Shown here: positions 25,673 through 55,518 of the stretch, piece after piece
Numbering within the stretch: position 1 is the stretch's first letter
How the letters are laid out: every line of letters begins with the position of its first letter
Origin: an uncultured delta proteobacterium
Lineage (GTDB): Bacteria > Desulfobacterota > Binatia > UBA9968
Direction of reading: 5' to 3'
Length of the DNA: 64,000 bases
NCBI GenBank assembly: GCA_963745035.1
Contig: CAVUVW010000013.1
Coordinates: 1-64,000 of the forward strand
The notes under the pieces: generated by a model
What the model was told of the DNA's origin: nothing
Databases searched by the model: none
Seen by the model: only the letters and a program-made list of their open reading frames with translations
Made by a program: the position numbers and the translations under genes

Positions 25673-25699
25673 ACTCTTCTCCTGATCTGAGAGCACGAG

Positions 25700-26188
25700 T
25701 TAACTGCCCGCGCTCTTCATTTCTTTTGCCGCATGCAAGATCGACTCGACGATCATCTGATAGCCGGTGCAGCGGCAGATGTTCGCATCCATATAAGCGC
25801 AAATTTGTTCCCGAGTCGGATCCGGGTTCTCCGCGAGCAAGCTCTTTGCCAGCAAGATCATTCCGGGAGTACAAAAACCGCACTGGAAACCCCCGCACTG
25901 GATGAAGGCCTTTTGCAGCGGATGCAAGCCCTCCGGACCTTCCAAACCTTCGATCGTCGTCAAGTCTTTGCCGTCGAGCTCAAAAGCGAACAGCGAACAG
26001 GAGCTCACGGCTTTCCCATCCAATAACACCGTGCACGTGCCGCAGACCTCCATGTCGCAGGATCTTTTTGTCCCGGTCAATGCCAATAGCTCGCGCACAA
26101 AATCGATCAGCAATTCTTGCGGCCGCACCTCTATTTCATTTTGCCGGCCATTGACGCGAAACTTTATGGGAACGAGACCTTCACTCAT
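25700..26188 (-). CDS. (2Fe-2S)-binding small subunit (CoxS-like)
   Basis: [25 protein letters not shown]. Confidence 0.95.
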   Translation of the reverse strand: MSEGLVPIKFRVNGRQNEIEVRPQELLIDFVRELLALTGTKRSCDMEVCGTCTVLLDGKAVSSCSLFAFELDGKDLTTIEGLEGPEGLHPLQKAFIQCGGFQCGFCTPGMILLAKSLLAENPDPTREQICAYMDANICRCTGYQMIVESILHAAKEMKSAGS

Positions 26189-31638: not shown

Positions 31639-32059
31639 ATGTCGCAAAAATCATCGGTGGGAATCAAAATTCTGGAAATCGATCACATCGTCATCAGATG
31701 CAAGGACGTCGAGCGGCAGTTGAAATTTTACGTCGACGTTCTCGGCCTGGAGCCCTACCGGATCGAGGAGTTCCGCGCCGGCAAAGTGTTCTTTCCCAGT
31801 GTCCGAGTTCATGACGGCATGATCATCGATCTGTTTCCACGGCCCAATGAAGAACCCGTCGGCGACGGCCCGCGCAACTTGGATCATTATTGCTTGACGA
31901 TTGCGCCCACGGATTTGAGCAAAGTAGCGGCCAGCCTTCAAGAACAGGGCGTAACTGTCGAAGGAGAAGCGAAAAAGCGCGTCCGGCGCGCGAGGCGATG
32001 GTTATTCGATTTACGTCAGAGATTTCGAAGGGAATCGAGTCGAGCTGCGATACTATTAA
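31639..32059 (+). CDS. VOC/glyoxalase family protein (frameshift near the C-terminus)
   Basis: IDHIVI..FYVDVLGL, NLDHYCL. The alternative frame gives GARGDGYSIYVRDFEGNRVELRYY-stop. Confidence 0.85.
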
Positions 32060-32561
32060 ATTGACATTTTACGTCGCCAGATCGCTAGAAAGAGGTAGCC
32101 CAAGATTAATTATGTTTAGCTGCGCGTCAGCGCTAAATGTCAGATAAAGGGGTCGTGGCGTCAACATAGCGGCAAGCCCATAAAAGCCAATCCGCGAAGT
32201 TATTTTTTTTGTCTTCGTTTTCTGCGGTGCAAGGTACCCATTCCGTCTGGCTCCCCCAAGTTCAGTCAAGCCAAGCTAAAGATCGTGATCGTTGAGGATG
32301 GACTTTAAGATGTCTCCTTTTTTCCTTTAGATGTATTGAAACGTAAGATCTCTTCACGGATGCCAACGAGAAACAACCAGGAGATTTAGCTGCGATGGAG
32401 GTAAATGGTTTGCTCAGATATAGCCGTAGGCATAGGCTGTTGAAACATATCACCTAGGGATCTGGACGATATTTCTCGTAGATTCCCGCTTTCTTCGGAA
32501 TCCAGATCTCCGAAACCACTGCACTCCGTGCCGGCGAACCATCCGAATCTCCGCATCGCCA

Positions 32562-33406
32562 TTACGTCGAATGGAGCGAATAGTCGATCGCCAGCCGTTC
32601 GGCGCCATAATATTCCTTGAGAAATTCGTGCTGACTTTCGTAGCGGCGCTTGGGTACCACGCGGCCCTGAAAAGAGACGACTAACGGATCGACATCGAAT
32701 GGATAAGGCGTGACGACGGCGCGGCTTTCATCCTCGATGGTGAAAGTCAGAATCGCGTCCGCTTTTCCCGGCCGGGTCGGCATAGGCATATTGCTCATGG
32801 TATTGCTCGGACCATTCTTGCGCTGCGGTGCTGTTGAACGGATAGCGATTGCAGACGAACTGCGCCATCTGATCGTAGACTTCCATCAATTTGAAATTCG
32901 TCCAGAATTGTTCGTCGGAAACGTGACCGCGATATTCCTCGGAGCTTCTGCAATTGCCTGAGCAGTTCGCGCGATAGCTCTCCTGCTCGGCGAGAAATTC
33001 TTTGACCTCGGGATAAACGGTAAAGTCCGGCATATACGGGAGCAGACCCGCGCCCCTGGGTCAGCAAACCGTCGGCGTGCAGAGAAACGATATAGCCCGC
33101 GTAGGGATCCTGCTCGGCTAGACGATCGATGCCGTGGCGGTAGAAATCCAGCCACACTTTGCCGCCAAGATGCTTGATGCTGCCAATATAATCCGGCGGC
33201 AAACCTTCGCTGTTGAGCTGCGGCTTGATCTCCCAGTCCCACCAGCCGGTGTCGTGCTCCTGCGCGGCCAAGACCATGGCCGCGTAAGGCGAAGGGCGCG
33301 CAAAAGAGTCGTTGCCCCAATGGGCAGCGAACCAGCCGGCGACCTTCGAATGATCGACTTGTAAGATCAGCAGCAGTCGTTCGTCGTCATAGGGACAGAC
33401 CATCAT
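32562..33406 (-). CDS. DUF3891-family protein, paralog 1 (frameshifted)
   Basis: LQVDHSKVAG..AAHWGN..AAQEHDTGWWDWE, DPYAG..VSLH, PYPFDVDP, matching my recollection of the DUF3891 pattern. Confidence 0.75.
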
Positions 33407-33449
33407 AAACTTATATCCTCCGCTATCCATTTCGAATCAATGACGCCGT

Positions 33450-34423
33450 CTACATTCCATGCAATTTCCGTCGTACCGTCCCGCCAAAAATATCATCAAG
33501 CTCAGACGCCGACCATCCGGTATTTTTTAATGCGGCGACAGTATCCTTCTCGGCGTTCGCCACATGCGGCACATCCGTGCCGAAAACCAATCGTGTCGAC
33601 GCCCCACGTCGCGCGCGCGCACGCCAACGCCGGACCATGAGTACACGCGGTGTCGAAGTAACAGCGGCGTAAATAATAACTGGGCGGGTGCGGGCAATTC
33701 GAAAAACGTTGGTAGCCGCGATCGATGCGGTCCAAGATCATCGCCAAACTCCCGCCGAGGTGCGACCAAACGATTTTCACGTCAGGGCACTCTTCGAGAG
33801 TCCCGGAGAGAGCGAGCTTGGTCGCCGCCATCGCCGTTTCGCCCGGATATCCAACGGAAAGAAAAGTTCCCGGATCGTTTTGCGGCGCGTCGCAGGGATA
33901 GGTCGGATGCACCAGCACCATCAACTTGCGGCGGCTCATCTCTTGCCAAAAGTGTCGGAGCTCGGGCGCTTGCAATTGGAAATCGCCGACATTGGTCGCG
34001 ATGCCGACGCCGCGCGCGCCCATACCAAGAGCGCGATCCAACTCGTTGCACCATCTCGTTAGCGCTTCGTGCACGGCAGGACGGCGACGAAGCGAAAACG
34101 ACTTGGATATTGCCGGCAAACCGCGGCAAGCCCGTCGTTGACAAAACGCGCCGCCGCGGCATCGCCGGAGCCGGCCCAACCAACATTCAGCGCGCCGACA
34201 GAAAGTATCGCCATACCGATGCCGGCTTCATCCATCGAAGCTAATCGTTAGGCAAATCGTCCTGCTCCGGCGGCATCGACATGACGTGGCTGCCGCGGTA
34301 GAGGAGCGACTGCCCGCGCGGGTTGTCGATGAGCTTGAAGTCCGTCCGGCTCTTGATCACTTCGGTGAAGCAGCCCGCGGGATAGACATGGGCATGAACA
34401 TCGATAATTTGCGAATCCGTCAT
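33450..34423 (-). CDS. Amidohydrolase_2 family protein (ACMSD/decarboxylase-like), frameshifted
   Basis: IDVHAH, VLVHP, ETAMAA, SHLGG, YFDT, FGTDVPH. Confidence 0.85.
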
Positions 34424-34444
34424 CGGTAGAATTTACTCCTAAAA

Positions 34445-36763
34445 TCAATTAGCTTCGCCTCGCTGCTCTTTTACCAACTGCAGAACATAGTCCGGTCTTG
34501 AGCGGCAATTTTTCACTTCGACACCCAAGGCATTCGACACGGCATTTGCCAACGCCGCGCCCGCCGCGGTGATGCCGCCTTCGCCCGCTCCTTTGACCCC
34601 GAGCGGATTGTGCGGACTGGGAAAATCTTCGGTCGAGATCAACTGCGCTTTGGGCATCTCCATCGCCGTCGGCAGCAGATAATCCATGAAGTTCGTCGCC
34701 AGCGGTTGGCCGTCTTCGTCGTAAACGAATTCTTCCAACATCGCGCCGCCGATTCCTTGAGCCAGACCGCCGGCCATTTGTCCTTCGATAATCATGGGAT
34801 TGATCTTGCGGCCGACGTCTTCGGTCACCAGATAGTCCAGGATCTTGATCTTGCCGGTTTCTGGTATCGACTTCCACCGCCGCGACATGCACGCCGTAAG
34901 GAAATGGCCGCTTATCGGTGGCGAAAAAATCTTCCTCGGAAATGCCCGGCGTCATGCCGCTTTTAAGCGCCGGACCGGGCAGCGCCAAGCGCGCGAGATC
35001 GGTAAAGCTGAGAGACCGCTCCGGCGCGCCGCGGGCAGACGACGCGACCGTCGCTAAGGATCAGGTCGGCGGCATCAATTTCCAAACTAGCCGATGCCAG
35101 ACCGCAGGAGCTTGTCTTTGACTTTGCGCGACGCGCCGACGGCGGCGCTGCCCGCCATCACCGTCGAACGGCTGGCGTTGCTGCCGTTGCCGTAAGGAAC
35201 CTTCGCCGTGTCGCCGTGCACGACGCGCACATTCATCGATGGAAACTTGCAGCTCATCGGCAACGATCTGGCTCAGCGCCGTCGCGATGCCTTGGCCGAC
35301 CGAGTTGCAGCCGGAATAAAGAACGACCTTGCCGGCATTGTCGATCTTCGACCCGGGCATACTCCCATGGCCCGATGCCGCTGGTTTCGACGAAGCAGCC
35401 GATGCCGACGCCGACGGCGCGGCCTTCGTGCTTTGCGGCGGCGCAGGTGGTCTTGAGACTTTTCATAGCCGAAGCGCTCCAAGCGCGCGCTCGAACTGGC
35501 CCGGCAAATCGCCGGTGTCATAAACCATATAGTGAAAAGGATGCTTGCCCAGATCATAGGGCATTTCTTCATGGCGAATCAGATTGCGCCGTCGCACGTC
35601 AGCGGGATCGAGCTTCAAACGATGCGCGATCATATCCATTAGCCGTTCGCGGACGAAATTCGCTTCGTAGCGTCCCGGGCTGCGGTAGGTGCCGACCGGT
35701 GTCTTGTTGGTCAGAACGCAAAAAACGTTGCAGCGATAATTTTTTACCCGAAACGGGCCGCGCAGCATGGCCGATGCGGCGATGGCGGGGACGCCGCCGT
35801 GGGTGCGCGTGTAGCCGCCCATGTCGAAGAGAATCTCGGCGTCCATCGCCATGATCGTGCCGTCTTTCTTCACGCCGATTTTGACTCGGTGATTTTGCTG
35901 GCGCGACTGATTCATCGCCTTGAGGTTTTCCGAGCGGTCTTCGATCCAGCAAATCGGTTTGCGAAAATGCATCGCGGCAAAGGGAATCAGAAAATCTTCG
36001 GGATAGAATTCGCCGCGCGCGCCAAAGCCGCCGCCGACTTCCGGCTCGATGAAATGGATGCAGCTCTGCGGCAGACCGATGAGCTCGGAGAGAATGCGCC
36101 AATTGGTATGGGTCATCTTGGTCGGTCCCCACATGGTCAAAAGACCGCGCCCCTCGTCCCACTCGGCGACCAAGCCGCGATTCTCCAGCGGCACGGCGGA
36201 ATGGCGTTGGGTCGAGAATTCCTCCTCGAACGATCAGGTCGCATCGCCGCCAAAGCGCCATCGACGTCGCCGACATTGACTTGAAAGTTGGCCGCGATGT
36301 TGTTTGGCGTCGCGTCATGGAGCTGCGGCGCTCCGGGCTGCATGCTCTGCGCGCGCGTCGGTGACGGCGCCCAGCGCGCGTATTCAACGTCGATCAATTC
36401 GAGGGCGTCCTCGGCGATGTAACGGTTCTCCGCGACGACCACGGCGACCGGGATCGCCGACGTAGCGCACTTTGTTCGTCGCAATCGGCGTTTGTTGCGA
36501 GCGCTCCAGCCCGGGAATAACGCCGGTGCGCATGGGAATAGTTTTCACTCCCGGCATATCGGCGCGGTGAGCACGCCGATGACTCCGGGGATGTCGAGCG
36601 CGGCGGCTGCGTCTATCTTGACGATCCGCGCGTGAGCATGAGTGCTGCGCAAGATCGCTGCATGCACCATGCCGGGGCGATGAATATCGCCGACATATTT
36701 GCCGATGCCGCGGAGAAGCCTCAGGTCTTCTTTGCGTTTAACTCTTGAGCCGATGTACGGCAT
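34445..36763 (-). CDS. CoxL/CutL-like molybdopterin-binding subunit (many frameshifts)
   Basis: MPYIGSRVKRKEDLRLLRG, RSTHAHA, EVGGGFGARG, TYRSPGR, SVGQG, NPLGVKGAGEGG. Confidence 0.9.
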
Positions 36764-36771
36764 AAAAATCA

Positions 36772-36806
36772 GTCTCGAGTTTCGGGTCTGGAGTCTCGGG
36801 TTTGCG
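36772..36806. repeat. Degenerate heptamer tandem repeat (about 5 units)
   Basis: gtctcga gtttcgg gtctgga gtctcgg gtttgcg, between the small and large subunit genes. Confidence 0.6.
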
Positions 36807-36835
36807 GTGAATATGTCGACCTTGCTCTTGGATCA

Positions 36836-37363
36836 TCAGTTTTGTGCCGTGCCGGATATTGCAGACCGTGAGCGCGTTAGACAGCTTTTTGCGTTCATGG
36901 TTTTCGCCGCTTCCTGGATCGCCGCGACGATATTTTGATAACCCGTGCAGCGGCATAAATTGCCGCTGATCCATTCGCGGATTTCCTCCTCGCTCGGATC
37001 GGGAATTTCTCTCAAGAGCGCCTCCGCCGTCAGCAGGATCCCCGGCGTGCAAAAACCGCACTGCAGGCCATGCAGCTCCCAAAATTTTTCTTGCAGCGGA
37101 TGAAGCTCGGTTGCGCTCGGCGCCAATCCTTCGATGGTTTTCAACTCGCGCCATTGGCTTGCACGGCGAACAGCAGACATGAGCGCACCGGCTCGCCGTT
37201 GAACAGAATCGTGCAGGCGCCGCACACGCCGTGCTCGCAGCCCACGTGGGTGCCGGTGAGCCCCAGATCGTCGCGCAGGAAATCGGTGAAAAGCTTGCGC
37301 GGCTCCACGTCACCGCGTGTACTCGCGGCCGTTGATCGTCAAGCGCACCTGTCGATCCTTCAT
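36836..37363 (-). CDS. (2Fe-2S)-binding small subunit (frameshifted)
   Basis: [39 protein letters not shown]. Confidence 0.9.
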
Positions 37364-38240
37364 CGCGAAGGGCCTCGTACCGATACGGCCGCGCGGTCTG
37401 CCGCCTGGACAAGAGCGCGGCGTGCCAACGCTTCACAGGCGCTGCGCCGGTACTCGGCGCTCGCATGGATGTCCGCATCTTGCTCCATGTTTTCGGTCGC
37501 CCGCCGCGCTGCCTCCATGAAAGCGGCGCTGATGGCTTCTCTCCCATCAGAAATTCCTCTGATGCGACGGGCAGGAAGCGGCTTCGCTCCCGTGAGAGTG
37601 AGCCGCGCATGGCGGATCTTCCCTTCGGCATCCAAAGCGATGACTGCTGCCGCCCCTGCCAACGCAAAATCGCCGTGACGGCGGCTCACTTCCTGATAGG
37701 ACCAGCCGGTATGCGCCGGCAGCCGGCACGATGATCTCGGTCAGCAACTCTTCCGGCTCCAGTGCCGTGGTCATATAGGAGACAAAAAATTCCTCGGCGC
37801 GAACCCTCCGCCGTTCGTCTCGGGAAGCCAGCACCATCGATGCATCGAGGCTCACCATCGCGACTGGCAGCTCGGCGGAAGGAAAAGCATGAGCCAAGCT
37901 GCCGCCGATCGTACCCCGGTTGCGGATCTGGATGTGGCCGATGAAACCCGCCGCCTCGCGGAGCAGCGGCCAACCTTCTGCGACCTCCGGCGACCGCTCA
38001 AGCTGCCGTTGCCGCATGGTCGCGCCGATGCGCAACACGCCATCTTGTACTCTGAGATAATCCAGTTCACCGATGCGGTTTAAATCGATCGAGATGAGCG
38101 GGCCGGAGCAGGCGAAAATTCATCAGCGGCACCAGGCTCTGGCCGCGGCGAGCGGCGGGCCCGTCGCCGAACTGCGACATCAGATTCAGCGCTTCATCGA
38201 GGCTGGTAGGATCATGGTAAGCAAAAGCCGCCGGTTTCAT
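37360..38240 (-). CDS. FAD-binding medium subunit (frameshifted)
   Basis: MKPAAFAYHDP, GHIQIRNRGTIGGSLAHA, SRRHGDFA, DIHASAEYR. Confidence 0.9.
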
Positions 38241-38258
38241 CTCGCCGCGTCCGCGCCA

Positions 38259-39104
38259 TCACGCCGAGGCGAGGGTATGCTCAATCGTGATCTTTTCCGC
38301 GCGGTAAAATTCGTCGAGAAACTCCTCGCCGTCCTTATAAACCCGATTGGGCACCAGCCGCGCGCTGAATGAAACCGGCAGCGGATCGATGTCAAAGGGA
38401 TACGGGCGCAGCACAGCCTTGTTCGGGCCGACGGTGTCGACCTCAATTTTCACCGCCGGTTTGCCGTGTCGAGTCGGCACGTCGACGTCATTCAGCGTGT
38501 TGCTCGGACCGAGCTTGCGCGCTTTGCTGTTGAGCGGATAGCGATTGCAAACGAACTGAGCGAGCTGATCGAAGACTTCCATGTATTCATAGTTCGTCCA
38601 GATCTGCTCCTCGGAACAGTGGCTTTTGAACTCGGCGGATTGGCGCAATTGGGCGAGTAGTCCAAGGCGCAGGTCTTCCTGATGATCGACGTAAGCTTTG
38701 ACCCGCGGGTCCGACGTGCGGTCCGGCGGATAGGCGTACTTGCCGTAGCCGGCGTTCATCAGCGCGACGCCGTGCATGGCCATGAGCATCGCCGCGTAGG
38801 GATCGCGCGTCAGCACTCGGTCCACCGAATTCTTGTAAAAATCCAGGCGAAGCTGGCCAAGATATTTTAGGCTGCCATCGTGGTAATCGAGCGGATAGCC
38901 CTTGTCGTTCAAGTTCGACGGCTACATTTCCCACTCCCACCAGCCGCTATCGTGCTCGTGGGCGGCCAACACCACCGATGAATACGGCTGCGGCCTATCG
39001 AACGCTTGATTCCCCCAGTGCGCGGCAAAGTGGCCGGCTACCCGCGAGTGGTCGATCTGCAACGCCAAGATGATCCGCGTATCGTCGTAAGGATAGGCCA
39101 TCAT
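38259..39104 (-). CDS. DUF3891-family protein, paralog 2 (one frameshift)
   Basis: LQIDHSRVAG..AAHWGN..AAHEHDSGWWEWE, DPYAA..AMH, PYPFDIDP. Confidence 0.75.
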
Positions 39105-39171
39105 TTTCTTTTACCTCATACGCCTTCGTAGGCAGGTCCGAGTCTTTTTGCATTCACAGACAAAGAACCGT

Positions 39172-39672
39172 TCAAAACAAAGTTCCGCCGCCGAGAATGA
39201 TCGCCACCGGCGCCTGGATGGAATTCATCGACTTCACGGCACCGGCGATGGCAGTCCGAATATCCTCCGCACGACTGACAAATTCGTAGCTGATACGCAT
39301 CGCATCGAGCAGCGGCGCAGTGCCCCAGCCCACTGGGACGGAAAACCATCTTTGATCGTGAAAGCCGCCCCGGTGAGCGATCAAGAGCAGCATCGGCACT
39401 CCGAAGGGAATCGGGCCGCGCATCAATGCATAGGGAGTGACAGCGAAGCCGGTGTTTTCCATGATCATGACCGGCTTCTTGCCGCCCAGCCAAGCGCCCA
39501 TGCACACACCGACGCCGTCTCCCTCGTTGGCGACCTGGATGTATTCGACCTGCGACTGTTCACTCAAAGGCTCATAGAGTTTTTTGAAGGCGGAATCCGG
39601 CAGGCATGCGGCAAAATTGATTCCCGAACCGATCAGCGAATCGAGCGTAAGTTTGGCCGCCTCAGGTTTCAT
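39172..39672 (-). CDS. Sulfopyruvate/phosphonopyruvate decarboxylase alpha-like subunit (ThDP Pyr domain)
   Basis: CLPDS, ANEGDGVGVCMGAWLGGK.P..IMENTG, LLIAHRG. Confidence 0.82.
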   Translation of the reverse strand: MKPEAAKLTLDSLIGSGINFAACLPDSAFKKLYEPLSEQSQVEYIQVANEGDGVGVCMGAWLGGKKPVMIMENTGFAVTPYALMRGPIPFGVPMLLLIAHRGGFHDQRWFSVPVGWGTAPLLDAMRISYEFVSRAEDIRTAIAGAVKSMNSIQAPVAIILGGGTLF

Positions 39673-39681
39673 TGCGTTTCC

Positions 39682-40293
39682 TCATATCGCACCTTCTAGA
39701 ATTTTGATGCCCTCTGTTTCCTCGATGAGGCGCACGAAACGAAACTTGTTTTCTTGGCCGCTGAAGTTCGGCCCGGCGCCGCGCTCATAACCCGGCTCGA
39801 CCTTGCACACGATCTCCGCAGGGCCGCCCTGAGAAATAAACTTCGAAAACTCGCCGGCGAACGCGTCAACGCTCTCCACGGTAGCGCAAGCCGCGAGCCC
39901 GGCTCCCTTCGCTAGAACGGACAGCTCCGTTCCGTGGGCGGTCTGGCTCGCCGGCCCGCCGCGGCTGCCATAGAGATGCTCGTTGTCGAACACGACGATG
40001 CAAAGATTCTTCGGCTTGTACGTGCCCACCACCGCAAGAATGCTCGGCGACAAGAGCTGGCTGCCGTCGGTATCGAGAGCGATGATTCGTCGATGAGGCA
40101 AGGCCCTGGCCAACCCGAAAGAGACCGGCGTGACCATGCCCATGCCGACCAGGTACAAGTTCATCGGACGATGCATGGTGTGGAAGCATTCATTGGTCGT
40201 TCCGGCGAGCGCCGCGACAACGATGTCCTTCTCCTCGAGAAAGCCGGAAAGCCGCAGCAGGATTTCTTTTCGCGTCACCTTAGCTCGCGCCAT
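39682..40293 (-). CDS. Sulfopyruvate/phosphonopyruvate decarboxylase beta-like subunit (ThDP PP domain)
   Basis: GMG..FGLA, LDTDGSQL..VVFDN..YGS.GG, a variant of the GDG-x-NN motif. Confidence 0.82.
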   Translation of the reverse strand: MARAKVTRKEILLRLSGFLEEKDIVVAALAGTTNECFHTMHRPMNLYLVGMGMVTPVSFGLARALPHRRIIALDTDGSQLLSPSILAVVGTYKPKNLCIVVFDNEHLYGSRGGPASQTAHGTELSVLAKGAGLAACATVESVDAFAGEFSKFISQGGPAEIVCKVEPGYERGAGPNFSGQENKFRFVRLIEETEGIKILEGAI

Positions 40294-40413
40294 TGTTGAC
40301 TCCCGTCTGTTCCATTAGGATCACCCATTACGATTTAGGTTGAAGCCGGTGGCTTCGTCAACAGGTCGTCATCCTTACAATCGCAAACTGATTAACAACC
40401 GATATTCCTCGGC

Positions 40414-41354
40414 TTAGTTGACTTCCCGCGCGATGGAAAAATCGACGAGCTTATCGAAGTTGACCGGCTTGCCCTCGAATTGACTGCCGAGAAGCGAGTT
40501 CTCCAACGCCTTTTTGGAAGCGATACCATTCCTCGTCGCATGCTTGACCACAAGCTCATAAATGTGTTCCACCGCGCTGGCCTCGATACCGCGCAGGTTT
40601 TTCTGGATGATCGCTTTGGTCTCGACGGGATAGCGCGCCATGTAGTCCAATGATCTCCCGACCGCTCGCACGACCTGTTCGCCTCTTCGCGGTCGGTTTG
40701 AAGTTTCTTCTGGCTCATCCCCAAACCGGCAAAAAGTGTTTCCATGTAATCGCCCAGCGGCAAAATGGTTTCTGGCCGAGCTTGTGGGCGATCAAGTTGG
40801 ATGGCACTTGCAGCACTGCCGCCGCAACGATTTTCGCTTCGAGCGCCGAAATGCGCGCCGCGTCCGTGCCGCTGCCGATGGCCAACAACTTTACGTCCTT
40901 ATCGGGATCGATATTGTTCGCTTTGAGCGCGAACCGAACCGCGTATTCCGTAGACGCGCCGTAGCGGCTGATTCCGACAGGCTTGCCGCGCAAGTCGTTG
41001 AAAGATTTGATCTCCGGGCGGGCGACAAGATCGAAGAAGGTTCGATTGTAGACACCCAGGATCGTGACTAACGGCGCGCCCGCCACCGCGGCGCGTAAAA
41101 CGCTCGAAGAGCTTTGCATGTAGTCGACGTCGCCGGTGATCAGCCCTTTGACGGCGAGGTCTGAACGCATGACGACGTATTCGACCCGCAAACCGGCATC
41201 CTCGAAAAACTTTCGCTCGATGCCGACCCAAATCGGCGTATTGGTCAAAACCACCGAAGAGGTCGCGATCACGATATTCTTGCCATCGGCTCTGGCAACA
41301 AAAGCGACAATAGATAAATCGAAGCGAACGAAAAGTTTTTCCAAGCGTCTTCAT
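40414..41354 (-). CDS. ABC substrate-binding protein, NMT1/SsuA-like (frameshifted)
   Basis: PIWVG..KFFEDAGL, DLRGKPVGISRYGA, IDPDKDV. Confidence 0.82.
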
Positions 41355-41395
41355 GTCCCGAAACTCCCGTTGTCAGTTGCATTTCCGCGTTTTCC

Positions 41396-42082
41396 TCAGT
41401 GCTGTCCCTCCAACCAATTTACGATATCGGCGAGGATCGGCGCGCGGTCCACATTGTTCAGATGATGATTGCCGCCCTCCACAGATCGATGCTGCGCCAC
41501 GGATTGCAGCTTCTCGTATAGAAGCTTGCCGTGCCCGTGCGGCACTGAAGCGTCTGCGGTGCCTTGAACGATCAAGACCGGTTTTTTGAGTCCGCCCACG
41601 ATCTCCATCGCGTCGGCGGCGCGGAAATGTCTTTCCTGAAGCGGACCGAAGCGGGCTTCCAGGATCGCGCGCGCGTTGGCGTTGTCTTCGAGGATTCGCG
41701 TCAGGCTGCAGAACGGCGCGATCGAAACTGCTCCGGCGAAACAGTTGTATTGGGTTGCGGCAACCAGCGCCATGGTCCCGCCCGTGGATTGGCCCATGGC
41801 CCAGACTTTATTGACGATTTGCCGTCATCGCGGCGGCGCAGGCGGCCATGTCGACCGGCCATAGACTCAAATCCGCTGGCCGGTGGAGCTGCCGTAGCCG
41901 CGCTGTTCGAAACGCAGCACCGTGTAGCCGCGGCCGGCCAACATTGCAAGCAAGTCGTCATAGGGCGTGCCACCGCCCCAGCCATGGCAGAACACGATGC
42001 CTTCGTCGCGGCTCTTTGCCGGCGTCCACATGGCGCAGTGGAGCAGCGCGTCGCTGCTCTTGATGTAGAAGGATATCGGCAT
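41396..42082 (-). CDS. Alpha/beta-fold hydrolase (frameshifted)
   Basis: CHGWGG oxyanion motif, RGYG, nucleophile elbow GQSTGG, QGTADASV, GGNH. Confidence 0.88.
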
Positions 42083-42098
42083 AATCGCTCGACTCCCG

Positions 42099-42766
42099 TC
42101 AATTTTTCATGAACCGCTCGTAGAGACCGTTGGTACCGATGACTTTCAGCTGCAGGGATTTTTTCGCGGCGGCGGTCGCCTTTTGCTGCAACTCATCGGT
42201 GGTCGCATAATGTTTCAAGACGTAGGCGCCCAGATTGGCGTGATCGTCTTCCTCCTCGGCGTGCTCGCCGTAGAAGCGCAACAGCGAAGGGTAGGGATAA
42301 TATTTCTTCGTGGCTTCGTACATGCGATTGCCGGCGCGCGTGTTGGTGCGCTCGTTGCCGAAATTGTTCGCCGCCGCGATCTCGACGATATGGCCGCGTG
42401 AAAGCCAGTAGTAAAAATAGGGCGTGGTGAACTCGGGAATGAGCTCCATACGGCGCATCTCGTCCGGGTCTCGGCCGATCTCTTTGGCGAATTCGACAAA
42501 TACTCCGGATGAGGCGCTTCTTCGTGGGTGTAGGCTATGTATTTCAGCCCCAAGTCCGGATCGGGGCAGCGTTGAATCCAGGAGCATAAGATCGAGGGGA
42601 TATGTTTGAGATAGGCATACCATTGGCCCATGATCTGAAAAAGCTGCTCTTTGCTCAGTTTGCCGCTGCACCAAGCGTCATAATATGGAGACGCGATAAC
42701 CTCGCGCCGGAGCGGTTCGAGCTCGCGATCCAACCATTCGACAAATTCATCGCCGGACATTGCCAT
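42099..42766 (-). CDS. Heme-oxygenase-like diiron (CADD/PqqC/TenA-fold) protein, paralog 1 (frameshifted)
   Basis: GKLSKEQ, HEEAPH, GNE, EHAEEEDDH metal-ligand pattern. Confidence 0.75.
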
Positions 42767-42794
42767 AAGACTTCCTTTCTGTCTTCCCTGACTG

Positions 42795-43832
42795 TCATCT
42801 GATTTCTTCGGGGATGATGCGTCCATCGTCTACGATGGTTTTGCCATCGAGCTCGAATTTCGCGCGGCGTAGGATCAAATCTTCGTGCGCCATGGTCTTG
42901 TTCTTGCCGCCCAAGCGATAGTTCGCGCCAAAGGCGATCTGCACGTTGCCGTAGGTCGATCTGACCTCGCGGGCGCCCTCTTCAGTGCCGCGCTGGGCGA
43001 TCTCCGACCAACGCGCGCGGTGATCGGTGCCCCAGCCGATGTGAGAGATAATGTAGGCTTCAGGGTCCCGCGCTTGCTCCATGTGGTCTTGTAACAAGAC
43101 CGCGTCCACGCCGCCGTCGATGCGTTTGATCACGCCGTTGACGACTTCGATGCGCACCGGTTCGGTGACGTAACGGCCCAGCATGACCATCAAATCGCCG
43201 ACGTCGAGAACCAACATGCCGTTCGCAGATTCTTCTTCCGGCGCGCAATAAAGAAAGCCCGAGGGCCAACTGTCCCATCGGCCTTTCTCATCGCTGATGC
43301 CGAGCTGGGTTAGCGCCGGACGGCCGCGCTTGCGCATGGTCAGGTCTGAACCCGCTTTGGACGCAAGCCGTATTTCGGTCGCGCCGTCGAGCCATCTCGC
43401 GCCTTTTATTGTTCTTTGGCGCACGTCGTCCGTGGGAAAGCAGCGGCGCAGCTGATCCTCGTTCGCCTTGACCTGAAGGACCCTCGTGCCGCCGGCGAGG
43501 ACCGCGCCCAATCCTTCGCCATAGATGTAAAGCGTGCTGCCGGTGGACAGGTCGATGACAAAGTCGGCGCTCTTTAGCACCGTGAGTACCGGCGCAAGAT
43601 TGATGCTCTTGCCTTCCGCCTCGGGCAAGAACGGAACTTTAACTTCGAAGATGCTTCCGGCAAGCTCCTTACCGGCAGCCAAGAACGCGGCGACATAATT
43701 CGGATTGGTTCTCGTGTCGGTGAAGAGCACGACCGTTTCCTTCCGATCTACCTTGCATAGACGCAATTCGGCGAGCGCCATGCCGACCAGGTCGCCGCCG
43801 ATCTCACCGGAAATGGGAAAACGCACAGTCAT
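42795..43832 (-). CDS. 2,5-dihydroxypyridine 5,6-dioxygenase (NicX/PicD)-like protein
   Basis: SKAGSDL, GRWDSWPSGF, LVLDVGD, DPEAYIISHIGWG, HED (H-x-D) resemble NicX as I recall it. Confidence 0.8.
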   Translation of the reverse strand: MTVRFPISGEIGGDLVGMALAELRLCKVDRKETVVLFTDTRTNPNYVAAFLAAGKELAGSIFEVKVPFLPEAEGKSINLAPVLTVLKSADFVIDLSTGSTLYIYGEGLGAVLAGGTRVLQVKANEDQLRRCFPTDDVRQRTIKGARWLDGATEIRLASKAGSDLTMRKRGRPALTQLGISDEKGRWDSWPSGFLYCAPEEESANGMLVLDVGDLMVMLGRYVTEPVRIEVVNGVIKRIDGGVDAVLLQDHMEQARDPEAYIISHIGWGTDHRARWSEIAQRGTEEGAREVRSTYGNVQIAFGANYRLGGKNKTMAHEDLILRRAKFELDGKTIVDDGRIIPEEIR

Positions 43833-43874
43833 AGACTTTCCTCCAAACTACAGATCCTCGCCCGTAGCGAGTGC

Positions 43875-44858
43875 TCATTTGCCGATTTCCTTCTCCAGCT
43901 GACTTACATATTGCGCATCGATCAGATTATCGGTTACCAGCTTGGCCACGTTGGGATCCGATTTGCCGAGGAAGTCCTTGACTACCCGGACACCGTCGAC
44001 CGCGGGAGATGGAACATCCTTGTATAGGGGCCCGTGAACCCTCCAGGTCTCCTCGAGTGCGGCCGAATCCTTGAGCTGCATGAACTGGGCTAGTCCCTTT
44101 ATCGCCGCGTCTTTGTTGGATTTGTAAATCCGGAGACCTTTTCCCATGGCCGATAGAACTTTATAGACTTCGTTGCCGCGCCGCTGCTGAGTGCTGCGCA
44201 GCACCACGAAGGAGGCGGCGGAGGAGGGGATTCCGAGGCTTGCCAGATCGACCAATAAATTCAGCCCCGCTTGTTTCGCGAGAAGAGTCAATGGCGGCGC
44301 GACAAAGGTCGCCTGCACCACGCCGCTCTTCAGCGCGGCAAAACGCGAGGTTTGAGCGCCGATCTGAATCAAGGCGACATCTTTCTCGGGCGTAAGGTTC
44401 AGCTTCCCGAGCACCGCGCGCGCAAGAAACTCGGTGTAGTCGCCCAAGCGATCGATGGCCAATTTCGCGCCTTTCATATCGGCGGGTGATTTGATCTCCG
44501 GGCTCGTTATCAGCGTGAGGACTTCTTTATCCATCACGCCACCGACAAATTTCACTTCAGCGCCCTGAGCCGCCGCTCGAATCGGACTGGCCGCGGCGAC
44601 AATCATCATCTGCACATCGCCGGCAACAAACGCTTGGGTGATCTGCGGTCCGCCGATATAGACAAACTGCGCGCGGATGCCCTGCTGCTCCAGCAGGCGT
44701 TGCTGTTGAATGAGACCGATAAAGCCATAGGTACCGCCGTTGGATGAGTAGCCGATCGGAAAGTCGGCAAGCGGCGTGGCCGCGTCGGCGCGAAATGGCA
44801 GCGCGCCAAGGGCGACGAGAACAGGGAGCCACGCCAGTCTTTGAGCCGTTCGAAACAT
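43875..44858 (-). CDS. ABC substrate-binding protein, NMT1/SsuA-like
   Basis: Signal peptide, IGYSS, LTPEKDVALIQIG, RFAALKSG, VAPPLT. Confidence 0.85.
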   Translation of the reverse strand: MFRTAQRLAWLPVLVALGALPFRADAATPLADFPIGYSSNGGTYGFIGLIQQQRLLEQQGIRAQFVYIGGPQITQAFVAGDVQMMIVAAASPIRAAAQGAEVKFVGGVMDKEVLTLITSPEIKSPADMKGAKLAIDRLGDYTEFLARAVLGKLNLTPEKDVALIQIGAQTSRFAALKSGVVQATFVAPPLTLLAKQAGLNLLVDLASLGIPSSAASFVVLRSTQQRRGNEVYKVLSAMGKGLRIYKSNKDAAIKGLAQFMQLKDSAALEETWRVHGPLYKDVPSPAVDGVRVVKDFLGKSDPNVAKLVTDNLIDAQYVSQLEKEIGK

Positions 44859-44890
44859 GGGCGTTGCCGGAGTCGGATCCTCGGAATTCT

Positions 44891-45577
44891 CTACGAAGCA
44901 GCGCCCTGCCAGTTTTTGATAAAGCGATCGCATAGCGCATTCTGGCCGAGAATCTTTAGCTGCAAGGATTTCTTGGCCGCGGCTGCCGCCTTGTATTGCA
45001 GCTCGTCGGTCGTCGCGTACTTCTGCAAGACGTAAACACCGAGGTTGGCATGGTCGCCTTCTTCTTCTGCGTGATCTTCGAAGAACTTGATCAGTGAAGG
45101 ATACGGATAGTACTTCACCGTCGCTTCGTGCATGCCCCGGCCCCGGCGCGTGTTGGTCCGTTCGTTACCGAAGTTGTTGGCGGCGGCGACTTCCACGATG
45201 TGGCCGCGTGAGAGCCAGTAGTAGAAATAAGGCGTAGTAAATTCCGGTATCAAAACAGCTTGACGCATCTCCTCGGGGTCGCGCCCCATCTCTTTCGCGA
45301 ATTCCACGAGGTATTCCGGATGCGGCGCTTCCTCGTGCAAATAGGCGATATACTTCTGCTGCACGTCGACATACGGACAGTTCTGAATCCACGCCGCGAG
45401 AATATGCGGGATCTCACGGAGGTAAGCATAGCGTTGCTTCATCAATTCAAAAACTTGCTCCTTGCTCAACTTGCCACTGCACCATGCTTCGAAATAGATA
45501 GATGACGATGCTTCACGACGCAGCGGCTCCAGCTCGCGATCCAACCATTCGACAAACTGTTCACCTGACATGGCCAT
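44891..45577 (-). CDS. Heme-oxygenase-like diiron protein, paralog 2
   Basis: Close paralog of 42099-42766: YLHEEAPH, GNE, DHAEEEGDH. Confidence 0.78.
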   Translation of the reverse strand: MAMSGEQFVEWLDRELEPLRREASSSIYFEAWCSGKLSKEQVFELMKQRYAYLREIPHILAAWIQNCPYVDVQQKYIAYLHEEAPHPEYLVEFAKEMGRDPEEMRQAVLIPEFTTPYFYYWLSRGHIVEVAAANNFGNERTNTRRGRGMHEATVKYYPYPSLIKFFEDHAEEEGDHANLGVYVLQKYATTDELQYKAAAAAKKSLQLKILGQNALCDRFIKNWQGAAS

Positions 45578-45686
45578 CGACAAATCCCTCCGCTGTTGCA
45601 AACACGACGCTTCTATTTCCCTGGATTCCTTTGTACCCACGGGACCAAGGGAAACTCTCGTCTCCGCCGTTCCTCGGGGGTGCACC

Positions 45687-46502
45687 TTAGCTCGCGACCC
45701 TCAACATGATCTCTTCATCGAGCCCCAGTTTATCTATTTCGCTCGCGGCCAGACGCAATTTTTCCCCAAGCATGCCTTGCTCCCTTTTGGTCAACGAGCC
45801 TGATGGGAAGGCGACCGTCAGGGCTGCGACACAAACCCGGTCGTGATTTCTCAACGGTACCGAGATGGCGCAGAGTCCCTTGGTGCTCTCCTCGTTGCTG
45901 GTTGCGAAGCCCCGCAGCCGAACGTTGGCAAGCTCGGCTAAAAATCGCTCGAACGAGGTTATCGTCGTGCTCGTCAAGCGTCTCAGCCGCGCGCCTCTGA
46001 ATCTTCGTTTAACCTCGAGATCGCCAAGCTCGGCGAGCAAAACCTTCCCGGACGCGCTCGCGTAGGCGGCGGCACTAGAGCCCACCTCGACGGTGACTCT
46101 CACCCTGCTGGTTCCGTCCAGTCGCTCGACAAAGATAACCGAAACTCCGTCGAGAACGCTCATAGTTACCGTATGGCCGCTTTCCGAGACGAGTTGGCGC
46201 ATCACGGCGCGCATCTTTGCGCGCCGGTCCACATTCAAATAGCCGGCGCCTACTGAAAAGGCGTTGACGCCGATTTTATAACTCCGCTGCGTGTCATCGC
46301 GCTCGAGAAATCCGTACCGTTCCAGGGTGGCGAGCACCCGGAAGGTCGTCGACTTATTGAACCCGAGTAGCCGCGCGGCTTCGCTGAGTCCGAGCGGCCG
46401 GCCTAACTCTTTGAGCTTGAGCAACAACTGGAGCCCCTTGGATAGAGACGACAGCGGCTTCTCGGTTTGTTTCACCGGTTTGGATGCAGAACTATTAGCC
46501 AT
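45687..46502 (-). CDS. IclR-family transcriptional regulator
   Basis: HTH SLSKGLQLL..KSTTFRVLATL, SASGKVLLA, T.TTIT, RGFA..NEE, AISVP. Confidence 0.94.
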   Translation of the reverse strand: MANSSASKPVKQTEKPLSSLSKGLQLLLKLKELGRPLGLSEAARLLGFNKSTTFRVLATLERYGFLERDDTQRSYKIGVNAFSVGAGYLNVDRRAKMRAVMRQLVSESGHTVTMSVLDGVSVIFVERLDGTSRVRVTVEVGSSAAAYASASGKVLLAELGDLEVKRRFRGARLRRLTSTTITSFERFLAELANVRLRGFATSNEESTKGLCAISVPLRNHDRVCVAALTVAFPSGSLTKREQGMLGEKLRLAASEIDKLGLDEEIMLRVAS

Positions 46503-47007
46503 TATTTTATCCCGCGCCTTCGGCTTTTGAGTTTTAAACCGGCTGTCCCTTTAGTCGCCTCGAGACCTTGTGCACTCCCCTTGACGCGCGGGGTCGCCAC
46601 GCCGACAACACTTCTGCGGTGGGAGGCCGGCCTTCACTCATACTCGCGAGCCGACCCTTCGCCCGGTTGGTTCATTATTATAACCGACGGTTACAAAAAC
46701 TTAGCCCAGCCTTATTGAAAGGGCAGTTTGATGTCAAGAAGCTCAACGAAGAGAAAGTATACTCTTGCGCGATCAGCACGAGCGTGTTTCCGCAAAGAGG
46801 GATGAAGGCCGGAATCTGTCCGCGATGGCTTCGGTAGATTTTCCATGACTGCTCTCTTCCTATGAGAAAAACGATGCCTATCGTCAATCCTCAAGCCGCC
46901 TACAGTTTTGATCGAAAGCCACAACGACAACTAACCTGGCCGAATCGCGTGATCGGAGCACAGGCGATCCCATCGCAGGCTGAGGATAGCCGGGCGAGTT
47001 TTACGGT

Positions 47008-47993
47008 CTACTTGGATGGCAATTCCCGCTTGAGCTTTTCGACGAAGCGCGTGTCGATGATCTCGTCGACGTTCAATTTAGCCACTTTGGGATCGTTCTG
47101 GCCGAGAAAGTCCTTGACCATTTTGATGCCGGCTATCGCCGGCGCAGGGATATCTTGAAAGATTTTGGCGTGGCTGCGAAACATCTCGTCGAGCGCTTCG
47201 GCATCGTTCACCTTCATGAAGCGCGCCAGACTGCGGATCGCCGCCTCCCGATTATTCTTGAACAGGCGCAGCGCTCGGGCGATAGCGCGCAGCACCCCAT
47301 AGACTTCTTTTTCCTGTCGCTCAGCCGTCGACTTCATGATGACGATGGAAGCAGAGGTCGACGGAAAACCCAGGTCGGCCAGGTCGATCAATGAGCGGAA
47401 GCCCGCCTTCTTCGCGATCAACGTCAATGGCGGCGCCACGAAGGTTGATTGAACTTGACCCGTTCGAAGCGCCGCAAAACGGCCCGTCTGCCCGCCGATC
47501 TGCAGGAGAACCACATCTTTTTGCGCTTCAAGACCGAGCGCTCCAAGACTTTGCGAGCGCGAAAATCCGTGTAATCGCCGAAGTCGTCGATCGCCATGCG
47601 GGTACCTTTGAGTTCAGCCGGTTTAGTAATATTTGATCGGCGATCACCGTGAATGTTTTCCTTGTCCGTGACCCCGCCGATAAAGCGCACGTCCGCGCCA
47701 TGAGCCGCCGCGCGAACCGGGCTGGCGCCGGCGACGATGGCCATGCGAATGTCTCCCGCGATCAGCGCCTGAGAGATCTGCGGACCGCCGATGTAGACAA
47801 ATGTCGGTCGGATTCCTTCCTGCTCTAGAAGTTTCTGCTCCTCGATCAGCGGAATGAACCCGTAGGTGCCCCCGAGCGAGGAATAGCCGATGGGAAAGTC
47901 ACTCTGCGCGCTCGCCGCTACAACCGGGACAATACAGGCGCCTACAAGAAAACTATTAAACCATTTGCCTTTGCCAAAGATCCTACCGAGCAT
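47008..47993 (-). CDS. ABC substrate-binding protein, paralog of 43875-44858 (frameshifted)
   Basis: DFPIGYSSLGGTYGFI, FVYIGGPQI, RFAALRTG, VAPPLT. Confidence 0.83.
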
Positions 47994-48150
47994 GACTCCT
48001 CCTGGATGAGAACTTGCTTCCGTCCGGATTGTCGTGAAAAACCCGTCCAACACGGTGCTTTCTACGCGATGTTACGTTGCCAAATTGTGGGGACATTCTT
48101 AACGATGCGGTCCTTTCTCTCTGCCTATTTGCGGGAACGCCGAACCATTG

Positions 48151-49104
48151 TCACGTCCCTAGAGTACTCGGATGAAACATTTCTTCCGGGTCGAACTTAC
48201 GCGCCGTAATACCCTGGCGATGGCAGTACTCGAGCAGTTTGTTCACCTCCCGTTTGGTTTTCCGAAATCCCCAGAGGTATGAATCTTGGCCGGCGATAGC
48301 TTGCTCTTCCTCCCACAAAGCGCGGTACCAGAGCGCGGTCTGATGCACCCGTTGCCACTCGAGCCACTCGTAGCATTTCTTTTTCGACTCCTGCCAGGCG
48401 TTGTACATGCTCATGGCAACCCATGGATCTTTTTCCAGAACGGAGTTTTTTATCAATAGAGTGTGCATGATCGGAAAGAAACCTGTGCGCTTGAAATAGT
48501 CACGCTCCAGGTCTGCGTAGTTCGGAAACAGAAAATCGACATCGGGATGAACGTTCGGCGCCCAGGTCCCGGTGGTGATCGCCGCATCGATGCGCACCGC
48601 CGGCGAGTAGATCGAATTGCTTTTGCTCTTTCGGAACGATTTCTATTTTCAACCAAGCGGGCGGCTTCCAATCGCCGACGCCCGAAACACGGTCTGCCAC
48701 CCAGGTCACCGATTTCGGATCGAGACCGTATTCGTCTTCGAGCAGCCCTCTTGCCCAAACCGCGGTCGTCGTCAGCCAATTCTGTACGCCGATGCGCTTG
48801 CCGTTCAGATCGGCAGGCGACCGGATGCCGGCGCGCTTGTTGATGTAGATATAGGAATGGCGAAACATGCGTTTGACGAAAATCGGAATCGCCGTGTAGC
48901 CGAGGGTTCTATAGTGGAGATCGGCGACGTAGGTGCCGGTATAGAACTCGGCGACATCGAATTCCTTGCCGTCGATCTTCGTCTGCCGTCCCGGGCTTTT
49001 GTTGACGAGAATTCCAGATCGATACCTTCCGGCTTGACCGTCCCGTCGATCAGCGCTCGGGCGCGGTCATATGGACCGCAGGTCATGGATAATATCAAGG
49101 ACAT
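48151..49104 (-). CDS. 4,5-dihydroxyphthalate decarboxylase-like protein, paralog 4 (frameshifted)
   Basis: CGPYDRARALIDGTVKPEG, RMFRHSYIY, DLNGKRIG, TGFFPIMH, PWVA, C-terminus STLGT. Confidence 0.83.
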
Positions 49105-55028: not shown

Positions 55029-55029
55029 G

Positions 55030-55440: not shown

Positions 55441-55518
55441 AGACCCTCCTTACCTTCAACACATGCTATGCATGGTAGAGTTCAAGCCGTTCTCATGGAC
55501 CGCTTTTCTCATGTCCAT

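Follow-up and report, generated by a model that had tools for sequence, protein, structure and literature searches.

A conserved gene cluster of Candidatus Binatia as a candidate route for the breakdown of a substituted pyridine-type ring

We describe a block of about sixteen genes in a genome of Candidatus Binatia (lineage UBA9968; GenBank assembly GCA_963745035.1) that is a real, conserved catabolic cluster and, in our judgement, an undescribed variant of N-heterocycle catabolism that has four types of enzyme in common with the pic and nic pathways. The stretch analyzed (hereafter, the window) comprises positions 1 to 64000 of contig CAVUVW010000013.1 (C13), in an assembly of 7.43 Mb and 28 contigs with 92.6% completeness and 5.8% contamination. 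Our preferred reading, to which we give a probability of about one half, is that the cluster serves to break down a substituted pyridine-type ring, probably hydroxylated or carboxylated, and that the many interruptions of its reading frames are errors of assembly.

The cluster occupies 32560 to 46502, with all its genes on the minus strand, co-directional and in an operon-like arrangement. Searches against Pfam, NCBIfam and the Protein Data Bank (PDB) recovered all 15 families that a preliminary description of this DNA had listed from 32562 to 46502, on the same strand and in the same order. Reading down from 46502, these are an IclR-family regulator, a haem-oxygenase-like protein (HO-like 1), a substrate-binding protein (SBP1), a NicX-like dioxygenase homologue, a second haem-oxygenase-like protein (HO-like 2), an alpha/beta hydrolase, SBP2, the beta and alpha subunits of a thiamine diphosphate (ThDP) enzyme, a DUF3891 protein (DUF3891_a), the flavin adenine dinucleotide (FAD), [2Fe-2S] and large subunits of a molybdenum (Mo) hydroxylase, an Amidohydro_2 protein and a second DUF3891 protein (DUF3891_b). 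The conserved block reaches beyond this series, as a further binding protein, SBP0 (47011 to 47993), belongs to it by synteny (Table 1).

Two of these proteins tie the cluster to pyridine-ring chemistry. The first is the NicX-like protein, which aligns over residues 19 to 344 with NicX of Pseudomonas putida (PDB 7cn3_A; expect value [E] of 1.8e-57, 197.8 bits). According to the accessible part of PMC7910607, the iron of NicX is bound by His265, Ser302, His318 and Asp320, alanine substitution of these four ligands leads to loss of activity, and 2,5-dihydroxypyridine is held by His105, Glu177 and His189. Of the four iron-binding residues, His265, His318 and Asp320 have counterparts in the window protein (His264, His316 and Asp318), and these three are invariant in the nine sequences compared. 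The second anchor is the Mo large subunit, whose best PDB relative is 6-hydroxypseudooxynicotine dehydrogenase (Kdh; 7dqx, E of 2.3e-169 over residues 2 to 758), followed by CoxL (1.4e-145) and quinoline 2-oxidoreductase (2.1e-122), with aldehyde oxidoreductases at 3.5e-54 and weaker. Kdh belongs to the nicotine pathway, and we take it to be a hydroxylase of the pyridine ring. It provides the closest solved large subunit and has the same three-subunit make-up, but no other gene of the nicotine pathway was recognized. The domain set of the three subunits is complete in Pfam, and the orthologues in G012, a genome of the same genus, are intact. The Mo subunits scored under all the named equivalog cut-offs of NCBIfam (carbon monoxide, xanthine and glyceraldehyde dehydrogenases and 4-hydroxybenzoyl-CoA reductase), the best being glyceraldehyde dehydrogenase alpha with 687 bits versus a cut-off of 790.

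The Amidohydro_2 protein would add a further step known from pyridine pathways. It matched no NCBIfam model, and in the PDB it is nearest to ACMSD (4ign, 2.8e-24), then to gamma-resorcylate, 5-carboxyvanillate and uracil-5-carboxylate decarboxylases, so that it is probably a non-oxidative decarboxylase. An analogy with KpiC, an amidohydrolase acting as a 3,4-dihydroxypyridine dioxygenase, was dropped since KpiC belongs to Pfam01979 (Amidohydro_1) and not to Amidohydro_2.

The gene-neighborhood comparison that the preliminary description had proposed showed that the cluster co-occurs in other Candidatus Binatia metagenome-assembled genomes, so the possibility raised there, that these genes keep no common company elsewhere, does not hold. 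The full order, with all genes open, was found in two genomes of the same genus (G012 and G008), at the locus L027 and over the two contigs L025 and L026 together, and part of it in G007 and L031. The regulator, from which the cluster had been called IclR-headed, is not a conserved trait: it stands between SBP0 and HO-like 1 only in the window genome and in L027, while in G012, G008 and G007 there is no IclR gene and SBP0 directly precedes HO-like 1. A profile search with the HO-like proteins yielded 39 metagenome loci, one of which (L052) is the same contig as that of G008. Their common order is SBP0, HO-like 1, SBP1 (not always present), NicX-like, HO-like 2, hydrolase and SBP2. The NicX-like gene is on the contig at 27 of the 39 loci; 10 of the other 12 contigs break off on the side on which it would lie, and two (L062 and L066) are without it.

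The HO-like pair is the most unusual part of the cluster. The two proteins are 73% identical in their G012 copies, and the best PDB match of HO-like 1 by sequence is CADD (E of 2.8e-5). When modeled with AF2, the orthologue from G007 (87% identical; predicted local distance difference test [pLDDT] of 95.1) shows the seven-helix haem-oxygenase-like fold, and Foldseek placed it next to a TenA homologue (3oql), CADD (8va9), UndA (4wwj), PqqC (1otw) and HrmI, with TM scores of 0.74 to 0.81. The alignments contain columns for three histidines and three carboxylates, namely, Glu119 and His122 (in an EExxH motif), Glu175, His205, position 209 and His212. All but position 209 are invariant in alignment A4, almost all 27 sequences of alignment A3 have Glu or Asp at position 209, and the ligand positions are kept down to 20 to 30% identity. 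Five of them align with residues of CADD that we take to be its metal ligands. PMC9522330 was consulted for the residue numbers of the CADD ligands and does not yield them. The six positions of the HO-like proteins agree with the rule of three histidines and three carboxylates given for haem-oxygenase-like dimetal (HDO) enzymes in the part of a review available to us (PMC13108848). From fold and ligands, HO-like 1 and 2 are predicted dimetal enzymes of the HDO type, which would bind metal and activate O2. With known HDOs (CADD, UndA, SznF and HrmI) they share the seven-helix fold and the ligand pattern, but they differ in forming a very small clade of their own, in their catabolic context and in the presence of two copies per cluster. 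Among 1.84 billion cluster representatives, only 94 matched at an E of ≤1e-3 and nine at ≤1e-30. No paper linking HDOs to dihydroxypyridine or NicX was found in the open-access literature searched.

The association of these proteins with NicX extends to distant relatives. At four loci (L084 to L087), two tandem HO-like genes (37 to 41% and 24 to 28% identity) are accompanied by a gene for an NMT1 binding protein and, on contigs long enough to include it, a NicX gene, in the order luciferase-like monooxygenase, NicX, NMT1 binding protein, 3-hydroxyacyl-CoA dehydrogenase-like protein, HO-like A, HO-like B and UbiD. HO-like A also matches DUF3050, and HO-like B also matches TENA. The NicX of this type is near-canonical (7cn3, E of 8.3e-136), with Glu177, His189 and Ser302 present and His105 replaced by Phe. 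In a sister genus (G034 to G040; L013 to L018, L021 and L022), there is a NicX-like gene of the Binatia type (68% identical), and all seven genomes with the gene have two tandem TauD/TfdA-family paralogues downstream (57 to 59% identical to each other), a divergent short-chain dehydrogenase/reductase (SDR) gene upstream and no HO-like gene there. Taken together, the HO-like pairs of L084 to L087 and the TauD pairs of the sister genus indicate that a NicX-type gene repeatedly lies beside two paralogous genes for non-haem-iron oxygenases. The preliminary description had proposed that the oxidative step falls to the diiron proteins. Their close association with genes of the NicX type in several lineages, and the TauD pair that takes their place in the sister genus, give indirect support to such a role, which we keep as a proposal.

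HO-like proteins also occur apart from the cluster. The same genome codes for at least nine more distant members (PF14518/TenA-like, 23 to 31% identity), and a short TENA-like open reading frame (ORF) lies at 60173 to 60721 of the window, which suggests that the family is expanded in this lineage. A solitary HO-like gene on the chromosome of another member of the Binatia (L028, 10714 to 11349; 78% identity with HO-like 2) stands tail-to-tail with an intradiol (Dioxygenase_C) ring-cleavage gene and no other cluster member near. A function in thiamine or hydroxymethylpyrimidine salvage, suggested by the NMT1/ThiY-like binding proteins and the TenA-like fold, was rejected: the HO-like proteins keep the full metal ligand set, and Rfam, including the thiamine pyrophosphate riboswitch, gave no match at an E of ≤0.1 between 30000 and 50000.

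From the family assignments, the conserved ligands, the synteny and the linkage, all of which are observed, we infer a substrate and a series of reactions. The NMT1-type binding proteins would capture the compound, and the Kdh-like Mo hydroxylase would hydroxylate the ring beside the nitrogen. The ACMSD-type enzyme would take off a ring carboxylate, and one or both of the HO-like dimetal proteins might carry out a further O2-dependent step, a hydroxylation or an oxidative C-C cleavage, that makes the substrate of ring cleavage. The NicX-like Fe(II) enzyme, with its remodeled pocket, would open the ring, the alpha/beta hydrolase would deacylate the open-chain amide, and decarboxylation of a 2-oxo-acid fragment or side chain could fall to the split ThDP enzyme. 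The nearest described system is the pic cluster of Alcaligenes faecalis JQ135, which, in the accessible part of its description (10.1101/530550), likewise has a three-subunit Mo dehydrogenase, a decarboxylase step for a ring carboxylate, a ring-cleaving dioxygenase of the NicX type and a hydrolase that acts on the open-chain amide. There, PicB is a four-component Rieske oxygenase, whereas the Binatia cluster has two HDO-type proteins and no Rieske or flavin hydroxylase. Pfam and NCBIfam found no ring hydroxylase of the NicC (flavin) or PicB (Rieske) type between 32560 and 47993, and nothing in the cluster corresponds to PicF (amidase) or PicG (isomerase); the preliminary description had already noted the absence of such a hydroxylase, of maleamate amidase and of maleate isomerase. 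Relative to pic, the Binatia cluster adds three binding proteins, a pair of DUF3891 proteins and the ThDP enzyme with its alpha and beta subunits, and its dioxygenase is without the residues that bind 2,5-dihydroxypyridine in NicX. No paper on Binatia and pyridine was found in the open-access literature searched.

A more specific version of this route is tentative, and we rate its chances well below even. Here the HO-like proteins would be the first catabolic HDOs, making the substrate of a NicX-type enzyme from a hydroxypyridine derivative (by hydroxylation, or by the oxidative decarboxylation or C-C cleavage typical of HDOs) in place of the NicC/HspB flavin, PicB Rieske or soluble-diiron hydroxylases; the NicX-like protein with its Gln/Ser/Ala/Tyr pocket would cleave a substituted dihydroxypyridine, and DUF3891 would serve the route as a novel metalloenzyme of HD-like type.

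Several observations weigh against a pyridine route, the first of them in the pocket of the NicX-like protein. The fourth iron ligand, Ser302, is replaced by Ala300, as it is by Ala in all seven Binatia-type sequences, while Ser is kept in L085 and L086. The three residues that hold the substrate are replaced as well (His105 by Tyr104, Glu177 by Gln176 and His189 by Ser188) in 7/7 Binatia-type sequences, and the sister genus has the same Gln/Ser/Ala pocket; the NicX-like protein need not act on pyridine. The homologues of this type form a distinct subfamily by their altered pocket, and the replacement of Ser302 and of the three binding residues points to a substrate that is probably a different, substituted ring. 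The preliminary label holds insofar as the homology extends over the full length and three iron ligands are kept, but cleavage of 2,5-dihydroxypyridine is not to be assumed. The protein should not be called a 2,5-dihydroxypyridine dioxygenase and is most likely a ring-cleaving Fe(II) oxygenase acting on a related substrate.

Further points on the same side concern the other genes. The alpha/beta hydrolase has only generic esterase similarity in the PDB, which does not sustain the parallel with the NicD/PicE deformylase in the preliminary description. No enzyme of the cluster reaches a curated NCBIfam cut-off. Maleamate amidase and maleate isomerase are outside the cluster, and the abundance of their relatives elsewhere in the genome (14 matches to PF17645, 13 over the cut-off, and 23 to PF00857, 22 over it, none assignable to the pathway) decides nothing. 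Most of the 39 metagenome loci are kin of the window, with 65 to 95% identity, and amount to few independent observations; greater independence can be claimed for L084 to L087, for L030 and L066 and for the sister genus. The HDOs validated to date act in natural-product or cofactor biosynthesis, according to the part of the review consulted (PMC13108848). Finally, several families fit organosulfonate metabolism as well, among them the SsuA-like binding proteins, the ComDE-like ThDP enzyme and the luciferase-like or TauD-like neighbors in the variants. What stands of the N-heterocycle route proposed in the preliminary description is the conserved cluster, its two components with pyridine-ring enzymes as nearest solved relatives, and the absences noted there; the IclR head, cleavage of 2,5-dihydroxypyridine, the hydrolase parallel and the ComDE label are not supported.

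The fit to organosulfonates raises the alternative that the substrate is an organosulfonate, an organophosphonate or another non-heterocyclic compound, which we consider unlikely. In that case, the SsuA-like binding proteins would import the compound, the ThDP enzyme would decarboxylate a sulfo- or phosphonopyruvate-like acid, the Mo enzyme would oxidize an aldehyde, the DUF3891 and HO-like proteins would be C-S or C-P cleaving oxygenases, and the NicX-like protein would have drifted to another reaction. The best NCBIfam matches agree with this (SsuA family for the binding proteins, sulfopyruvate/phosphonopyruvate decarboxylase for the ThDP subunits and glyceraldehyde dehydrogenase for the Mo enzyme), as do the luciferase-like monooxygenases of the variants, the TauD-family genes of the sister genus and the pocket residues unlike those of NicX. 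However, these scores are far under the cut-offs, in families that are large and functionally broad: ThDP beta has 97.8 bits to TIGR03846 versus a cut-off of 221.5 (and matches 9iz3_B in the PDB at 8.6e-13), and ThDP alpha has 96.4 bits to TIGR03845 versus 147.95. With the sulfopyruvate (ComDE) and phosphonopyruvate decarboxylases, which are their best matches in both databases, these subunits share the split into TPP_N and TPP_C, but they lie below every cut-off for either enzyme, and the cluster context contains no coenzyme M or phosphonate genes; the name ComDE-like that the preliminary description had used is not supported by these scores. Moreover, the Mo subunit is, as seen above, much nearer to a pyridine-ring hydroxylase than to aldehyde oxidoreductases, and the distant HO-like pairs adjoin a NicX that has kept Glu177, His189 and Ser302.

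The DUF3891 proteins also bear on this alternative, as their weak structural matches include PhnZ and TmpB. Both window copies match PF13030 in pieces, the G012 copy with 144 bits versus a gathering cut-off of 24, and the two proteins are 46% identical to each other in G012. Among 630 homologues none is named with a function, and no paper on DUF3891 was found in the open-access literature searched. Invariant in 18 sequences are His19, His51-Asp52, His111 and Asp179. A structural model (pLDDT of 82.5) had no Foldseek match in the PDB at an E of ≤0.001 and led only to DUF3891 clusters in the Atlas, and no Pfam HD family matched at an E of ≤10. VIA-align gave Z scores of 5.1 to 6.5 to the HD proteins PPX/GppA, HD-GYP, PhnZ, TmpB and PgpH, values within the stated noise range of the tool. 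The pair may possibly be metal enzymes with an HD-like domain, which we offer as a lead and no more.

Somewhat less likely again is that the cluster consists of two or more independent neighboring modules, each for a different compound, one from SBP0 to SBP2 and the other from the ThDP genes to DUF3891_b. The surroundings would suit such a patchwork, since the window as a whole forms a catabolic island, in which three Mo-hydroxylase sets occur along with a LigB dioxygenase, two UbiD decarboxylases, cupin dioxygenases, three Rieske oxygenases of the LigXa type and seven or more NMT1-type binding proteins that have no permease next to them. Relatives carry inserts at the joint between the modules and inside the second one: a FAD_binding_2 gene and an extra binding protein precede the ThDP genes in L026, and two SDR genes separate the FAD subunit from DUF3891_a in G012. 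At L030 and L066, the HO-like genes are joined to Amidohydro_2 and DUF3891 genes, without NicX, ThDP genes or the Mo large subunit. Nevertheless, both modules adjoin and are co-directional in G012, G008, L027, L054 and L083, and the re-association of HO-like with DUF3891 or Amidohydro_2 in the rearranged loci L030, L049 and L066 argues for a functional tie across the modules.

As assembled, only six of the 15 genes are open (IclR, HO-like 1, SBP1, NicX-like, ThDP beta and ThDP alpha), and the other nine are split. The frame changes were located by a frameshift-aware dynamic-programming alignment of the intact G012 orthologues (locus L019) to the window DNA. Between 32560 and 42808 there are 43 changes of one or two bases and one TAG stop codon, ranging from a single change in HO-like 2 to 16 in the Mo large subunit, with 26 in the three Mo-hydroxylase genes; a few of the 43, near gene ends, are possibly alignment artefacts. 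That these are true mutations, and the pathway is dead here and alive in relatives, is a reading that we regard as quite improbable. It would account for the sheer number of breaks and for their clustering in 32.5 to 42.8 kb, with the four upstream genes intact. On the other hand, the frame-corrected proteins are 73 to 91% identical to those of G012, the same range as for the intact genes (e.g., 699/768, or 91%, for the Mo subunit and 305/345 for NicX-like), and the codon-wise ratios of nonsynonymous to synonymous divergence (dN/dS) versus G012 are 0.047 to 0.114 for broken and 0.038 to 0.098 for intact genes. Of all the genes compared, dN is lowest (0.055) in that of the Mo subunit, the one broken most often, and its dN/dS is 0.047; this fits poorly with a neutral period long enough for 16 indels.

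Short-read data point in the same direction. We aligned Logan contigs from four public metagenome runs to 32400 to 43000 and considered the indels among the matches listed. Run X1 gave pieces nearly identical to the window (zero to four mismatches each), and among the matches listed its contigs carry a restoring indel at 5/5 covered predicted sites, all in the FAD subunit (two bases inserted at 37724, one base deleted at 38090 and three bases more between 38128 and 38226). They have no other indels over 38299 to 38714 and 38966 to 40286, 1,738 bases without a predicted site, the latter part, with the ThDP genes, being spanned by one contig with one mismatch and no gap. Also among the matches listed, the frame is restored at 32945, 36452, 37317, 37521, 41822, 41876/41878 and 42499, by contigs of X2 and X3 (an X3 contig inserts a G at 42499 in HO-like 2), of X1 at two of the sites and of all four runs at the hydrolase sites 41822 and 41876/41878. 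Likewise, the assembly has few contigs, yet its completeness is 92.6%, and similar patches affect unrelated genes of the window (19376 to 22145, 47011 to 47993 and 52674 to 56263), where a signature amidase (19376 to 20820) and a second Mo large subunit (52674 to 54925) are each in three pieces, and a LigXa-type gene, SBP0 and an Amidohydro_2 fragment are also split. Such patches fit patchy consensus errors. A genome-wide scan of ORF coverage was rejected as a quality measure, because spurious long frames, which arise where the DNA is rich in G+C, distort it; the scan indicates that low-coverage patches exist and no more.

Two points remain on the side of decay. The TAG at 38922 to 38924 in DUF3891_a is a substitution, unlike the indels, and no listed contig covers it; the codon is a sense codon in 18 aligned homologues, with Lys in the consensus. 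In addition, if X1 comes from another sample, it is no strict proof of intactness in the window strain, and the argument is slightly weaker. Nonetheless, the restoring indels in short-read contigs, together with the equal constraint on broken and intact genes, make it very probable that the breaks arose as consensus errors during assembly and not through decay, so that the organism most likely has a working cluster. Dense frameshift patches such as those of this assembly mimic pseudogene decay, and their nature as errors can be recognized when orthologues and contigs from short reads are compared with them.

That the cluster makes a secondary metabolite or a cofactor is very improbable: although characterized HDOs act in such biosynthesis in the part of the review cited above (PMC13108848) and the nearest PDB relative by sequence is the p-aminobenzoate synthase CADD, the cluster lies in a catabolic island, contains no nonribosomal peptide synthetase, polyketide synthase, ligase, methyltransferase or exporter, and pairs the HO-like proteins with typical catabolic families (Mo hydroxylase, ACMSD-type decarboxylase, ring-cleavage dioxygenase, uptake binding proteins and IclR).

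The coordinates of the sixteen genes are collected in Table 1. The start of SBP1 is probably downstream of 44933, and every NCBIfam equivalog match of the IclR protein is under its cut-off. There is no permease or ATPase in the cluster, and ATP-binding cassette transporter genes are found 20 to 40 kb away. In a scan of 31900 to 48300, promoter and terminator sites were no more frequent than in shuffled sequences and are uninformative on operon limits, and none of the public runs listed for this DNA was from RNA. Elsewhere in the window, an intact Mo-hydroxylase set with a divergent LysR regulator is located at 23363 to 27056 and a serine recombinase pair at 284 to 2264.

Table 1. Genes of the conserved block, in the direction of reading on the minus strand
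Gene product	Position in window	Strand	State as assembled	Basis
SBP0, NMT1/SsuA-type periplasmic binding protein with signal peptide	47011..47993	-	3 frame changes	Synteny with HO-like 1 in relatives
IclR-family regulator, 271 amino acids	45687..46502	-	Intact	HTH_IclR E 3.8e-14, IclR_C E 4.5e-42 (Pfam)
HO-like 1, haem-oxygenase-like (HDO) protein	44894..45685	-	Intact	PF14518
SBP1, NMT1/SsuA-type binding protein	43878..44933	-	Intact	Pfam, NCBIfam
NicX-like non-haem Fe dioxygenase homologue, 345 amino acids	42798..43832	-	Intact	PDB 7cn3 match; no Pfam match
HO-like 2, paralogue of HO-like 1	42102..42808	-	1 frame change near 42495	PF14518
Alpha/beta-fold hydrolase, 228 amino acids in relatives	41399..42082	-	2 frame changes near 41874 and 41816	Pfam
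SBP2, NMT1/SsuA-type binding protein	40417..41360	-	Up to 4 frame changes	Pfam, NCBIfam
ThDP 'beta' subunit, TPP_enzyme_C domain	39685..40293	-	Intact	Pfam
ThDP 'alpha' subunit, TPP_enzyme_N domain	39175..39672	-	Intact	Pfam, NCBIfam
DUF3891_a	38262..39104	-	In-frame TAG at 38922-38924	Pfam PF13030
FAD subunit, CoxLMS-type molybdenum hydroxylase	37363..38240	-	7 frame changes	FAD_binding_5 + CO_deh_flav_C
[2Fe-2S] subunit, molybdenum hydroxylase	36884..37440	-	3 frame changes	Fer2 + Fer2_2
Molybdopterin-binding large subunit	34453..36763	-	16 frame changes	Ald_Xan_dh_C + MoCoBD_1 + MoCoBD_2
Amidohydro_2 (ACMSD-type) protein	33459..34436	-	5 frame changes	PF04909
DUF3891_b	32560..33406	-	5 frame changes	Pfam PF13030

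Binatia are abundant, uncultured soil bacteria whose catabolic abilities are known from genomes only. If the cluster does act on a substituted pyridine-type ring as proposed, it would represent a new enzymatic solution for pyridine-ring degradation, carry HDO chemistry over from biosynthetic into catabolic metabolism, set apart a subfamily of NicX by its different substrate and give DUF3891 its first functional context.

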